DNA of 64,000 bases from Escherichia coli O157:H7. GTDB lineage: Bacteria; Pseudomonadota; Gammaproteobacteria; Enterobacterales; Enterobacteriaceae. The DNA lies in the NCBI RefSeq assembly GCF_013167455.1, contig NZ_CP038328.1; one strand, 5' to 3'. Positions within the stretch are counted from its first letter, which is position 1. Each line of letters opens with the position of its first letter. Below the pieces are notes generated by a model. That model was not told the DNA's origin. It did no database searches and was given only the letters and a program-made list of their open reading frames with translations. Positions 26,785 to 30,310 of this stretch are shown piece by piece. The position numbers and the translations under genes were made by a program.

Positions 26785-28128
26785 ATGTTAAACAGTATTT
26801 TAGTCATACTCTGCTTGATCGCTGTAAGTGCGTTCTTCTCGATGTCTGAGATCTCACTTGCCGCCTCACGCAAAATCAAACTTAAACTGCTGGCTGATGA
26901 AGGCAATATAAATGCCCAACGCGTTCTGAATATGCAGGAAAATCCCGGCATGTTCTTTACCGTGGTCCAAATCGGTCTGAACGCAGTGGCGATTCTCGGC
27001 GGTATCGTCGGTGATGCGGCATTTTCTCCAGCTTTTCACAGCCTGTTCTCCCGCTATATGTCGGCAGAGCTCTCTGAGCAACTGAGCTTTATTCTCTCTT
27101 TCTCGTTAGTGACTGGCATGTTTATCCTGTTTGCGGATTTAACCCCGAAACGCATCGGTATGATTGCGCCAGAAGCTGTGGCTTTGCGTATCATCAACCC
27201 GATGCGCTTCTGCCTGTACGTTTGCACCCCGCTGGTGTGGTTCTTCAACGGCCTGGCGAACATAATCTTCCGTATTTTCAAACTGCCAATGGTACGTAAA
27301 GATGACATCACTTCTGATGACATCTACGCGGTAGTGGAAGCCGGTGCGCTGGCGGGCGTGTTACGTAAACAGGAACACGAGCTGATTGAAAACGTCTTTG
27401 AGCTGGAATCCCGTACCGTTCCGTCTTCAATGACACCGCGTGAAAACGTGATTTGGTTTGATCTCCACGAAGATGAGCAAAGTCTGAAAAATAAGGTGGC
27501 GGAACATCCGCACTCTAAGTTCCTCGTCTGTAATGAAGATATTGACCACATCATCGGCTATGTCGATTCTAAAGACCTGCTGAACCGCGTGCTGGCTAAC
27601 CAAAGCCTGGCACTGAACAGCGGCGTACAAATTCGCAACACGCTGATTGTGCCGGATACGTTAACCCTTTCAGAGGCGTTGGAAAGTTTTAAAACCGCAG
27701 GAGAAGACTTCGCGGTGATCATGAACGAGTACGCGCTGGTAGTGGGGATCATCACCCTCAACGACGTGATGACCACGCTGATGGGCGATCTGGTCGGTCA
27801 GGGACTGGAAGAGCAGATTGTCGCCCGTGATGAGAACTCATGGCTGATTGACGGCGGCACTCCGATTGACGACGTCATGCGCGTGCTGGATATTGACGAG
27901 TTCCCGCAGTCGGGCAACTACGAAACCATCGGCGGCTTTATGATGTTTATGCTGCGTAAGATCCCGAAACGCACCGATTCGGTGAAATTCGCCGGCTACA
28001 AATTTGAAGTGGTGGATATCGATAACTACCGCATCGACCAGCTGCTGGTGACCCGGATCGACAGCAAGGCCACAGCCCTTTCGCCAAAACTGCCTGACGC
28101 TAAAGATAAAGAAGAAAGCGTCGCGTAA
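26785..28128 (+). CDS. ytfL: inner-membrane protein with DUF21-CBS-CorC/HlyC domains (CNNM/UPF0053 family), 447 aa
   Basis: Full ORF; N-terminal TM region, tandem CBS region and C-terminal CorC_HlyC-like segment. Confidence 0.93.
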   Translation: MLNSILVILCLIAVSAFFSMSEISLAASRKIKLKLLADEGNINAQRVLNMQENPGMFFTVVQIGLNAVAILGGIVGDAAFSPAFHSLFSRYMSAELSEQLSFILSFSLVTGMFILFADLTPKRIGMIAPEAVALRIINPMRFCLYVCTPLVWFFNGLANIIFRIFKLPMVRKDDITSDDIYAVVEAGALAGVLRKQEHELIENVFELESRTVPSSMTPRENVIWFDLHEDEQSLKNKVAEHPHSKFLVCNEDIDHIIGYVDSKDLLNRVLANQSLALNSGVQIRNTLIVPDTLTLSEALESFKTAGEDFAVIMNEYALVVGIITLNDVMTTLMGDLVGQGLEEQIVARDENSWLIDGGTPIDDVMRVLDIDEFPQSGNYETIGGFMMFMLRKIPKRTDSVKFAGYKFEVVDIDNYRIDQLLVTRIDSKATALSPKLPDAKDKEESVA

Positions 28129-28144
28129 CCCCCATAAACATCAA

Positions 28145-28170
28145 CGGCTCCTGAATCAGGAGCCGTCTTA
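28145..28170 (+). terminator. rho-independent terminator after ytfL
   Basis: CGGCTCCTGA-ATCAGGAGCCG hairpin followed by TCTTATT. Confidence 0.55.
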
Positions 28171-28222
28171 TTACTGCATAGCACTTTTTACTGCATAGCA
28201 CTTTTTACTGCATAGCACTTTG
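28171..28222. repeat. tandem direct repeat, ~17-18 bp unit (ACTGCATAGCACTTTTT) x ~3
   Basis: Three consecutive copies read directly in sequence between convergent ytfL and ytfK stops. Confidence 0.7.
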
Positions 28223-28223
28223 G

Positions 28224-28430
28224 TTAAGCCATCTCTGTTTGCAGACGCATAACCTGACGGTTAACTTCGGACATCACTGACAAATGCAGCTTATCCTTCA
28301 CTTTTGGGATAAGAATCTTACCCTTATCGAATTCAAAAGCGCCAACGTCCTTGATGTATAATCGTCCACGGAACAGGATCTTTACGTACTTCGCCACCTG
28401 AAGTGGGTTGTACCGTTGGAAAATTTTCAT
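28224..28430 (-). CDS. ytfK: small protein YtfK (DUF1107), 68 aa
   Basis: ORF-track 28224..28496 trimmed to the ATG giving [19 protein letters not shown], preceded by AGGAGA RBS. Confidence 0.9.
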
Positions 28431-28754
28431 TGTTATCTCCTGCTGAGTATTACGCCTGTGCGGTGCCACAATCGGCCCAACTATTATGAGGCGCAAATTT
28501 TAATGCTTAGTGACTATAGACTATCCGGGCAATGTTTCCACCGCGTATAACTTTTTTTACCTAAAGGTTACAATTATTCAGAATTATCTTTTTACCGAAG
28601 CGCGGTCTTCAGTATAAGCATTCATTTTTCATATGATTTGTGCGCTTGACCGCAAACTGGCATCACACTTGCGGGAAATTCGATAAATAGCACATATGAT
28701 TAAAACTCAGACCCAAGTGGTCGGATCACCTGCATATCATAAGAAGGAAACACC

Positions 28755-29309
28755 ATGACCCTACGCAAGATTCTGGCACTCACCTGCCTGCTGTTGCCGA
28801 TGATGGCTTCCGCACATCAGTTCGAAACCGGTCAGCGAGTGCCGCCGATTGGCATTACCGATCGGGGCGAGTTGGTGCTTGATAAAGATCAGTTTAGCTA
28901 CAAAACCTGGAACAGCGCGCAGTTAGTGGGAAAAGTGCGAGTACTGCAACATATTGCTGGTCGCACCTCTGCAAAAGAGAAAAACGCGACGCTGATTGAA
29001 GCGATTAAATCAGCGAAGTTACCGCACGATCGTTACCAGACCACCACCATTGTTAACACCGACGACGCGATTCCGGGTTCCGGCATGTTTGTGCGCAGCA
29101 GTCTGGAGAGTAATAAAAAGCTTTATCCCTGGTCGCAGTTTATTGTCGATAGCAATGGCGTCGCGCGCGGTGCCTGGCAGCTGGATGAAGAAAGTTCCGC
29201 TGTAGTGGTGCTGGATAAAGACGGTCGCGTGCAATGGGCCAAAGACGGGGCGCTCACTCAGGAAGAGGTGCAGCAAGTGATGGACCTGCTGCAAAAGTTG
29301 CTCAAATAA
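28755..29309 (+). CDS. ytfJ: periplasmic protein YtfJ, 184 aa
   Basis: Full ORF with signal peptide (MTLRKILALTCLLLPMMASA). Confidence 0.9.
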   Translation: MTLRKILALTCLLLPMMASAHQFETGQRVPPIGITDRGELVLDKDQFSYKTWNSAQLVGKVRVLQHIAGRTSAKEKNATLIEAIKSAKLPHDRYQTTTIVNTDDAIPGSGMFVRSSLESNKKLYPWSQFIVDSNGVARGAWQLDEESSAVVVLDKDGRVQWAKDGALTQEEVQQVMDLLQKLLK

Positions 29310-29329
29310 TGGCAATAACATAAATTCTG

Positions 29330-29371
29330 CAAAAATAATTTTCCCCTATCGTTATCTATGGGATAGGGGAA
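29330..29371 (-). terminator. rho-independent terminator after ytfI (hairpin shared with convergent ytfJ)
   Basis: TTCCCCTATC...GATAGGGGAA 10-bp stem; T-tract on reverse strand (AATTATTTTT). Confidence 0.6.
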
Positions 29372-30310
29372 TTAAGTCTCTGAGTTCTTACGCCGAACTA
29401 ATACTGGTAACGCTAGTTGCTCTTTTTTAAACGCCTCAATGGTCGATTTATATTTCTCGCAAATCTTTTCTTTGGTAATATCACTATCTGCGGCCAGATT
29501 CGCACTTACTATCGCATCCACTTGTTCGGCTAATTCGACTTGTTGGCAACCCGCATTAACCAGAAAATTATAAATAAGAGAGTAATCTTCATCCTCCAAG
29601 ACAACAGAGGAACCATTACGAAAACGTTCATCCCCTCCATAGATTTTAAGCGCAAAGCCCAAAGATTCTATGACTATGGCAAAATTATCATCAATTATTT
29701 TTTCGTAAATATACCATCCATCGCACTGTTTAATTCCACCTCCTGGCCCTTGTAGTTCAAATTTACCCCGTTTTAATTTGCTTACTATATCATCCAATAA
29801 AGCATAACCTAAAGACACGTCACCAATCGCCTGGTGAATATAACCTTTAATCCTTTTCGGTATGTCAGACTGTTTTTTCTGCAGAATATCCCAGGCATAC
29901 AATCGTCTGTTTTGTTCTAACGGAAATTCACGGTTCTTGAAATCCATGAATGAGTTATACTCATTTATTGTTATGGGGATTTCTTCGTATTCAAATCCAC
30001 TGCCTCGCAATGTCATTGTATATTCGGCACCGTTATCTTTAAGGCTGAAACTGATAAGAAACTTATCCATAGCGTTAACAGTTTCATTTTTTGATGAAAG
30101 CACCTGATAACTACTTTTATCAATCTGAGTTGCGCAACGAAAGAACTCCCTCAAAGTTAACAGGCTATCATAATTCGAAATCCAATCTTTTTTCTTAAAT
30201 GCATGATGGATGTTGTTAAAAAAATTGTTTGAATGTGTTTTTGTATACGAAGACTTTACAAATAACTCCACCGCACCAATAAAATTATTGTGTCTGATCC
30301 TGGGTAACAT
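29372..30310 (-). CDS. ytfI: uncharacterized protein YtfI, 312 aa; AT-rich orphan gene
   Basis: Full ORF, visibly AT-rich relative to neighbours, no recognisable domain by eye; same position as ytfI in K-12. Confidence 0.8.
   Translation of the reverse strand: MLPRIRHNNFIGAVELFVKSSYTKTHSNNFFNNIHHAFKKKDWISNYDSLLTLREFFRCATQIDKSSYQVLSSKNETVNAMDKFLISFSLKDNGAEYTMTLRGSGFEYEEIPITINEYNSFMDFKNREFPLEQNRRLYAWDILQKKQSDIPKRIKGYIHQAIGDVSLGYALLDDIVSKLKRGKFELQGPGGGIKQCDGWYIYEKIIDDNFAIVIESLGFALKIYGGDERFRNGSSVVLEDEDYSLIYNFLVNAGCQQVELAEQVDAIVSANLAADSDITKEKICEKYKSTIEAFKKEQLALPVLVRRKNSET

Follow-up and report, generated by a model that had tools for sequence, protein, structure and literature searches.

Organization of the paeA-ytfK intergenic region

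The 64 kb stretch of DNA that was analysed (hereafter the window) carries the convergent genes paeA (ytfL) and ytfK, and along it paeA is followed by a hairpin, a 4 nt spacer, a short tandem array, the dinucleotide GG and the stop codon of ytfK on the minus strand (Table 1). Read directly and with a script, the array consists of three identical 17-bp copies of TTACTGCATAGCACTTT, arranged head-to-tail at 28171-28221. A sequence-only reading of the same DNA had placed three tandem copies at 28171-28222, between the ytfL hairpin and the ytfK stop codon, and its description holds: the recount gives three perfect 17-bp copies in the TTACTGCATAGCACTTT register, the coordinates are essentially exact, and the array lies 4 nt from the hairpin and 2 nt from the stop codon. 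In the register used by that reading, ACTGCATAGCACTTTTT, two copies are perfect and the last one carries two mismatches at its end; by chance this pattern is expected to match 0.23 times per 64 kb, and three or more matches occurred in none of 100 shuffles. TRF reports the array at 28167-28221 with a period of 17, 3.2 copies, 97% matches and a score of 103, which tops the ranking in the window (the runner-up scores 51).

Table 1. Features of the paeA-ytfK region, in window coordinates.
Feature	Position	Strand	Basis or remark
paeA (ytfL) CDS, convergent neighbour	26785..28128	+	447-aa ORF; paeA/hemolysin family protein in matching E. coli records
MLVA primer ECMLV7-R (VNTR O157-33) site	28092..28115	+	Exact match to PMC11773471 Table 1
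Inferred ytfK 3'UTR	28140..28223	-	CC, three repeat units, UAA, hairpin, UUGAU; K-12 Term-seq end transferred
Shared hairpin, ACGGCTCC-TGAATCA-GGAGCCGT	28144..28166	both	Terminator-like score on either strand
Repeat copy 1, hairpin-proximal	28171..28187	-	FnrS-complementary core 28170-28184, 15 bp
Repeat copy 2	28188..28204	-	FnrS-complementary core 28188-28201, 14 bp
Repeat copy 3, stop-codon-proximal	28205..28221	-	FnrS-complementary core 28205-28218, 14 bp
ytfK stop codon	28224-28226	-	
ytfK CDS	28224..28430	-	68 aa, DUF1107, stringent-response modulator YtfK; MKIFQRY... in the 28224-28496 ORF; annotation
MLVA primer ECMLV7-F (VNTR O157-33) site	28278..28301	-	Exact match to a PMC11773471 primer

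Over 301 bp the paeA-ytfK region is 100% identical to O157:H7 genomes. The repeat unit has no second occurrence within the 64 kb window, to which the unit scan was confined, and the only other occurrence of its core that we know of is in the fnrS gene itself. A scan of 27000-29500 with the Rfam 15 covariance models gave zero matches at a permissive E-value of at most 1, a promoter scan found no promoter-like site in the array, and a terminator scan found no site inside the repeat units, the terminator-like hairpin lying outside the array. The units themselves are predicted to fold only weakly, with no stable hairpin. Two roles were considered for the array and rejected: coding DNA, since ORFs starting inside the units are only spurious and 17 bp do not make a whole number of codons, and an intrinsic terminator, since the G+C-rich stem-loop with its U-tract sits outside the units.

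Copy-number variation at a typing locus

The array is the VNTR O157-33 of E. coli MLVA. Both ECMLV7 primers match the window once and flank the array, with a predicted O157-33 amplicon of 210 bp (28092-28301) at three copies. The primers are given in a poultry-phage paper (PMC11773471) for a seven-locus E. coli MLVA, in which the seventh locus is labelled 'O157-33 (ytfL)'; this universal seven-locus scheme is credited to Camelena et al. 2019 in both PMC11773471 and PMC12175529, the latter being a second paper that employs the marker.

For a census of copy number, we designed queries and matched them to 5,426 complete E. coli genomes, of which 5,420 carry the locus. At least two copies are found in 1,250 genomes, at least three in 214 and four in 3. 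Expressed by allele, a single copy is the state of the E. coli majority (~4,170 genomes, 77%), whereas two copies are present in ~1,036 genomes, including K-12, CFT073, O55:H7 TB182A and O157:H7 SS52 and TW14588, and three copies in ~211, which among the matches listed are all O157:H7 or O157-like. The three genomes with four copies are strains 472, PA20 and the PA20 derivative 20R2R, and a five-copy allele was found in none of the 5,426 complete genomes. The paeA-ytfK region as such gave 5,427 matching places, 3 of them on records labelled plasmid, and 6 genomes were without a match. The suggestion, made from the sequence, that copy number can differ between strains is thus borne out by perfect alleles of one, two, three and four copies, and the polymorphism was already in use as an MLVA marker.

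The alleles that were fetched differ by clean 17-bp steps with every copy perfect, and the hairpin and its flanks are identical across all of them. One flanking SNP haplotype was found with differing copy numbers and O157:H7 alone has two, three and four copies, from which it follows that changes in copy number have been recurrent. The other Escherichia species and clades sampled were all single-copy. In the one-copy allele, CTT is already repeated 17 bp apart (GTCTTA...CACTTT), and judging from the sequence this pair is a plausible microhomology that may have seeded the first slippage. One genome, RM13745 (NZ_CP044312.1), gave the only strongly truncated match, with the paeA 3' end and the array replaced; it was considered as a natural deletion of the array and rejected as an assembly artefact, since what stands in their place is ~200 bp of poly-G-rich junk and then AT-rich sequence.

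Position within the ytfK 3'UTR

In published Term-seq data for K-12, the ytfK strand has a strong 3' end at 4439860(+), on the U that closes ...GGAGCCGUUGAU, right after the hairpin, with average read counts of 21,988 in LB at OD 0.4 and 91,116 in LB at OD 2.0. As this end lies beyond the hairpin, the array is inside the ytfK 3'UTR, which measures 67 nt in K-12 and, by sequence identity, an inferred 84 nt in the window (28223 to 28140). Functionally, the array belongs to the ytfK 3'UTR and not to ytfL/paeA.

On the paeA strand, the array lies past the hairpin. The same K-12 Term-seq study reports Rho-dependent termination in the paeA-sense direction, in a region at 4439794 (-) that corresponds to window ~28223 at the ytfK-proximal edge of the array, and the location of this region at the far edge means that some paeA read-through crosses the array. 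Such read-through RNA would hold three copies of the FnrS nt 65-78 sequence, antisense to the ytfK 3'UTR. Separately, a strong Term-seq 3' end coincides with the start codon of paeA (K-12 4441214 (-), window ~26786; 70,082 reads in LB at OD 2.0); it is assigned to the unnamed gene G0-10706, and the study also built a 'ytfL 5'UTR + ORF' reporter. This end suggests that, upstream of paeA, transcription terminates prematurely or an RNA arises from the 5'UTR.

Complementarity of the repeat unit to FnrS

On the ytfK strand the repeat unit reads AAAGUGCUAUGCAGUAA, and in each unit the GUGCUAUGCAGUAA that it contains can form unbroken Watson-Crick pairs with FnrS throughout nt 65-78. FnrS is an FNR-induced, Hfq-dependent small RNA. 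The MG1655 sequence that we used matches Rfam RF01796 with 134.8 bits, and its nt 64-78, AUUACUGCAUAGCAC, are the same letters as the plus strand of the window. The pairing is 15 nt long in the hairpin-proximal copy (nt 64-78) and 14 nt in the other copies.

Duplex energies were obtained from cofolding together with region-restricted duplexes and shuffles; these replaced a duplexfold of the whole UTR against the whole FnrS, which ignores intramolecular structure and gave unrealistically long duplexes. The 15-bp duplex has an energy of -25.3 kcal/mol, compared with a mean of -7.4 kcal/mol (sd 2.2) for shuffled sequences, none of 5,000 being as low. The intermolecular helix is included in the cofold MFE structure of the ytfK UTR with FnrS, with a net gain of 17-19 kcal/mol. 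According to the Rfam consensus structure as well as the MFE fold, the pairing segment of FnrS sits in a weak internal hairpin, which must open. Neighbouring sites form 14-bp helices with 3 nt between them, and in a multi-strand thermodynamic model, which ignores Hfq and steric limits, n copies take n FnrS molecules at about -18 kcal/mol each. The junction between units, AGUAAAAAG, is A-rich and A-R-N-like, and motifs of the A-R-N type bind the distal face of Hfq (Tree et al. 2014, PMC4104026).

ytfK-FnrS pairs in published interactome data

The predicted pair has been captured in published data. In an Hfq RIL-seq study of K-12 (PMC12262471), which has two copies of the unit, the chimera 'ytfK.EST3UTR-fnrS' ranks first in each of the two wild-type replicates (112,573 and 85,192 chimeras, cells grown in LB to OD 1.0) and accounts for about one fifth of the FnrS chimeras (112,573 against 426,380 others). 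In Hfq mutants the chimera is depleted, the replicate counts being 11/not detected for R16A (rim), 995/1,985 for Y25D (distal face) and 11,463/14,864 for K31A. The loss in Y25D agrees with AGUAAAAAG acting as an A-R-N-type motif. The pair is absent from the iRIL-seq data of the same study, and a 2025 RIL-seq preprint mentions in passing a 'highly abundant FnrS-ytfK pair'.

In O157:H7 Sakai, one hybrid read from RNase E-CLASH joins CTTAACCAAAGTGCTATGCAGTA to GAATTACTGCATAGCACAATTGAA. We find that the ytfK half is window 28228->28206 on the minus strand, that is, the stop codon together with the stop-proximal unit, and that the FnrS half is nt 62-85. This hybrid provides support for the pairing at the level of nucleotides, from a single read. 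Iterated sRNA binding sites were among the roles that had been suggested from the sequence, and this is the suggestion that the data favour, with a perfect FnrS complement of 14-15 nt in each unit and the pair recovered both in RIL-seq and in CLASH.

Other RNAs also contact the ytfK mRNA, which is enriched 31.8-fold in a Salmonella Hfq co-IP. Hfq-CLASH in K-12 yielded hybrids of ChiX, CpxQ (from the cpxP 3'UTR) and GcvB with the ytfK 5'UTR or CDS (window ~28300-28500, minus strand), and RIL-seq also contains a BhsB-ytfK pair; several sRNAs thus seem to converge on the ytfK mRNA as a hub. A literature search, with subscription journals largely outside its reach, found no published analysis of the ytfK-FnrS interaction, of its effect or of a link to the VNTR. 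Searching by the unit sequence returned nothing relevant, and the MLVA papers that were accessible treat O157-33 as an anonymous length marker.

Conservation across genera

We compared the ytfK loci of 80 species representatives and scored FnrS duplexes over 76 of them. The short ytfK 3'UTR is unusually conserved: identity to the consensus is 85-100% in many genera for the core (GTGCTATGCAGTA), an A-rich stretch, the stem of the hairpin and GATGTTT, to be compared with a mean of 82% at the third codon positions of ytfK, itself a very conserved gene, and conservation disappears directly past the hairpin tail. The stem is kept across genera, Kosakonia having a compensatory CGGCCCC/GGGGCCG variant.

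The fnrS sequences of MG1655 and of eight further genera, reached through their ZntB neighbours, are invariant over nt 1-93 in all nine genera. Co-variation is therefore uninformative and only one-sided retention or loss in the ytfK 3'UTR can be scored. Complementarity to FnrS is retained in ~60 of the 76 species representatives, with 15-30 pairs and z from -4 to -9.5. The genera concerned are Escherichia, Salmonella, Citrobacter, Enterobacter, Kosakonia and Trabulsiella, together with Lelliottia, Leclercia, Yokenella, Franconibacter and Phytobacter, all with predicted duplexes of -21 to -34 kcal/mol. In Raoultella, a 12-bp core with one G.U and at most 21 predicted pairs gives -19 to -21 kcal/mol and z of about -3 to -4.5. 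In Klebsiella and a few outliers, there is no pairing above chance (z ~0), the nearest proxy for Klebsiella FnrS being that of Raoultella, which equals E. coli FnrS over nt 1-93. The loss in Klebsiella indicates that the anti-FnrS element is not indispensable. A gene other than paeA lies downstream of ytfK in several loci of Klebsiella and Raoultella.

An A->G change in Citrobacter preserves a G.U pair with FnrS. In most genera the pairing extends to the U-rich nt 55-63 of FnrS, giving 20-30 predicted pairs that span 25-35 nt; the anti-FnrS complementarity is shortest in E. coli, yet only there has it been tandemly multiplied. From these alignments, the single-copy unit is the E. coli version of a predicted anti-FnrS element that is conserved in most Enterobacteriaceae ytfK 3'UTRs. 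A motif duplication on a small scale is seen outside E. coli: in Leclercia, Lelliottia, Franconibacter and some Citrobacter, a partial second GCAGTA lies a few bases past the core and, in the predicted duplexes, pairs again with the FnrS UACUGC.

Discussion

The array is VNTR O157-33 and lies in the ytfK 3'UTR, and in light of these data we consider it probable that each of its units is a docking site for FnrS. The ancestral state would have been a single anti-FnrS unit that was duplicated by replication slippage within E. coli; the CTT microhomology, 17 bp apart, may have seeded the first duplication, and perfect repeats would permit more changes. The alleles would then present one to four FnrS docking sites, three in this O157:H7-type window, each extra copy adding one more position for FnrS to bind and copy number setting the capacity of a ytfK transcript for FnrS capture. 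Pairing could titrate FnrS, couple the fate of the ytfK mRNA to FnrS, or do both, and a reciprocal RNase E-mediated effect on ytfK mRNA stability is possible. By analogy with other RNAs, capture or titration of FnrS by ytfK transcripts, or co-regulation, is the favoured outcome, because mRNA-borne sRNA decoys are brought to mind by the extent of the pairing in most genera, by the very large part of the FnrS chimeras that the pair takes up and by the abundance of the 3' end.

A single copy in 77% of E. coli and in all other Escherichia sampled implies that the extra copies are dispensable and could be neutral slippage. It is accordingly a serious possibility, although we would not call it likely, that the locus is a neutral VNTR in which the unit merely includes an ancestral FnrS site and the additional copies are functionally irrelevant products of slippage that happen to be useful for typing. 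Such a reading would agree with the single copy being both the majority and the ancestral state, with recurrent changes across flanking haplotypes and within O157:H7 (two, three and four copies) of the kind that is typical of mutational noise, with the perfection of all copies, expected if the duplications are young, and with the service of the locus as an MLVA marker. However, every added copy restores the full 14-nt FnrS complement and the A-rich junction, and since ytfK heads the FnrS partners recovered on Hfq from a two-copy strain, it is unlikely that additional sites have no consequence for the RNA. The three-copy allele, moreover, is kept in ~211 genomes, and those listed are all O157:H7-like.

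The docking of FnrS on the ytfK 3'UTR may also serve the opposite direction of control, with FnrS regulating ytfK through a change in mRNA stability, by recruitment of RNase E or by protection from 3' exonucleases. Anaerobiosis would then be linked to the YtfK/SpoT stringent-response switch, and copy number would change the sensitivity of ytfK and not the availability of FnrS. The chimeras contain the ytfK 3'UTR as RNA1 and FnrS as RNA2, the usual order of target and sRNA, the O157:H7 hybrid came from RNase E, and the ytfK mRNA is a hub for ChiX, CpxQ, GcvB and BhsB, all of which would suit this direction. Nevertheless, we think it unlikely as the main role: the site is ~210 nt downstream of the start codon, which makes a direct block of translation impossible, the 20-30 predicted pairs in most genera exceed typical seed pairing and come closer to decoy or sponge RNAs, and the pair makes up about a fifth of FnrS chimeras. 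Regulation of ytfK by FnrS is compatible with titration and is a live alternative to it.

A role of the repeats as a terminator or 3'-end module, in which for example U-rich tracts after the paeA hairpin or a Rho loading site for paeA read-through would influence how the transcript of either gene terminates or how stable its 3' end is, appears very improbable. On the paeA strand the units do end in TTTTT directly after the hairpin, and the Rho-dependent region at K-12 4439794 on the paeA-sense strand coincides with the far edge of the array, but the units have no stable hairpin of their own, the hairpin and flanks lie outside the array and are the same in all alleles, the ytfK 3' end follows the hairpin whatever the array, and conservation across genera tracks FnrS complementarity and not T-tracts. 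That the repeats act at the DNA level, as iterons to which a protein binds or as part of a promoter, is scarcely credible, as the tandem arrangement alone speaks for it, whereas the array has no promoter-like match, the unit holds only a 3-bp inverted repeat and has no other copy in the window, and the RNA complement to an invariant sRNA fully explains the conserved core; the proposal of iterated protein binding sites in the sequence-only reading thus found nothing in its favour.

Returning to FnrS capture, a further step would be to regard the VNTR as a heritable rheostat, in which slippage alters the number of FnrS sites and so tunes both FnrS capture and the coupling of ytfK/SpoT-dependent (p)ppGpp to oxygen limitation. 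We offer this as speculation and hold it to be rather improbable. If it were true, the FnrS regulon of O157:H7, which has three sites and AsxR, would be measurably weakened or re-timed with respect to one-copy E. coli, including haem use through chuS.

The locus is already known as a tandem repeat and strain-typing VNTR. What is apparently new, in that it was not found in the literature searched, is that the repeated unit is an FnrS pairing site, that this site explains the most abundant Hfq-bound RNA pair of a K-12 RIL-seq study, and that it forms part of an anti-FnrS element conserved across Enterobacteriaceae and present in one to four copies in natural E. coli lineages. To our knowledge, the iteration of an sRNA site in a 3'UTR with a number that varies between strains is also new, and this would be a rare case of a bacterial VNTR that alters the number of sRNA binding sites. 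The natural series of alleles with one to four copies is suited to probing the role of the ytfK 3'UTR-FnrS pair, be it as a sponge of an anaerobic sRNA or in the control of a stringent-response modulator. It also follows that results from K-12, with two sites, may not hold in quantitative terms for most E. coli, with one, or for O157:H7, with three.

Comparison with known systems

With respect to VNTR O157-33, the array is the same locus, with the same primers and the same 17-bp copy-number polymorphism; the accessible typing papers make no link to the ytfK 3'UTR or to FnrS.

Among RNA-based systems, comparison can be made with the sponges and decoys of sRNAs that reside in mRNAs or are processed from them, examples of which are the chbBC intergenic trap for ChiX, SroC for GcvB and 3'ETS-leuZ for RyhB/RybB. 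As in these sponges, a segment of the ytfK mRNA has extended complementarity to an Hfq-dependent sRNA, is conserved, and is abundant together with FnrS on Hfq. Unlike them, the ytfK site is tandemly iterated and strain-variable in number, features that we do not know of for chbBC, SroC or 3'ETS-leuZ, and its effect on FnrS is a predicted one. The case of the ChiX trap is cited in PMC4104026.

The ytfK pair has in common with the canonical FnrS targets (sodB, sodA, metE, iscR and chuS) the same sRNA and a dependence on Hfq, the chimeras collapsing in R16A and Y25D. Canonical target sites are located at or near ribosome-binding sites and pair with the C/U-rich seed region I or with the 5' end of FnrS. 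This description is taken in part from Tree et al. 2014. The ytfK sites, in contrast, are in a 3'UTR and engage another segment of FnrS.

AsxR, an anti-sRNA from the Stx2 prophage of EHEC by which FnrS is destabilised (Tree et al. 2014, PMC4104026), is a second RNA of O157:H7 that is complementary to FnrS and has been described as an anti-FnrS. Use of the same FnrS site by the two RNAs was considered and ruled out, as AsxR targets the terminator loop of FnrS (PMC4104026), whereas the ytfK units pair with nt 64/65-78, adjoining seed region I. The two also differ in origin, the AsxR sRNA having been acquired horizontally, while the ytfK element belongs to the core genome and is conserved across genera.
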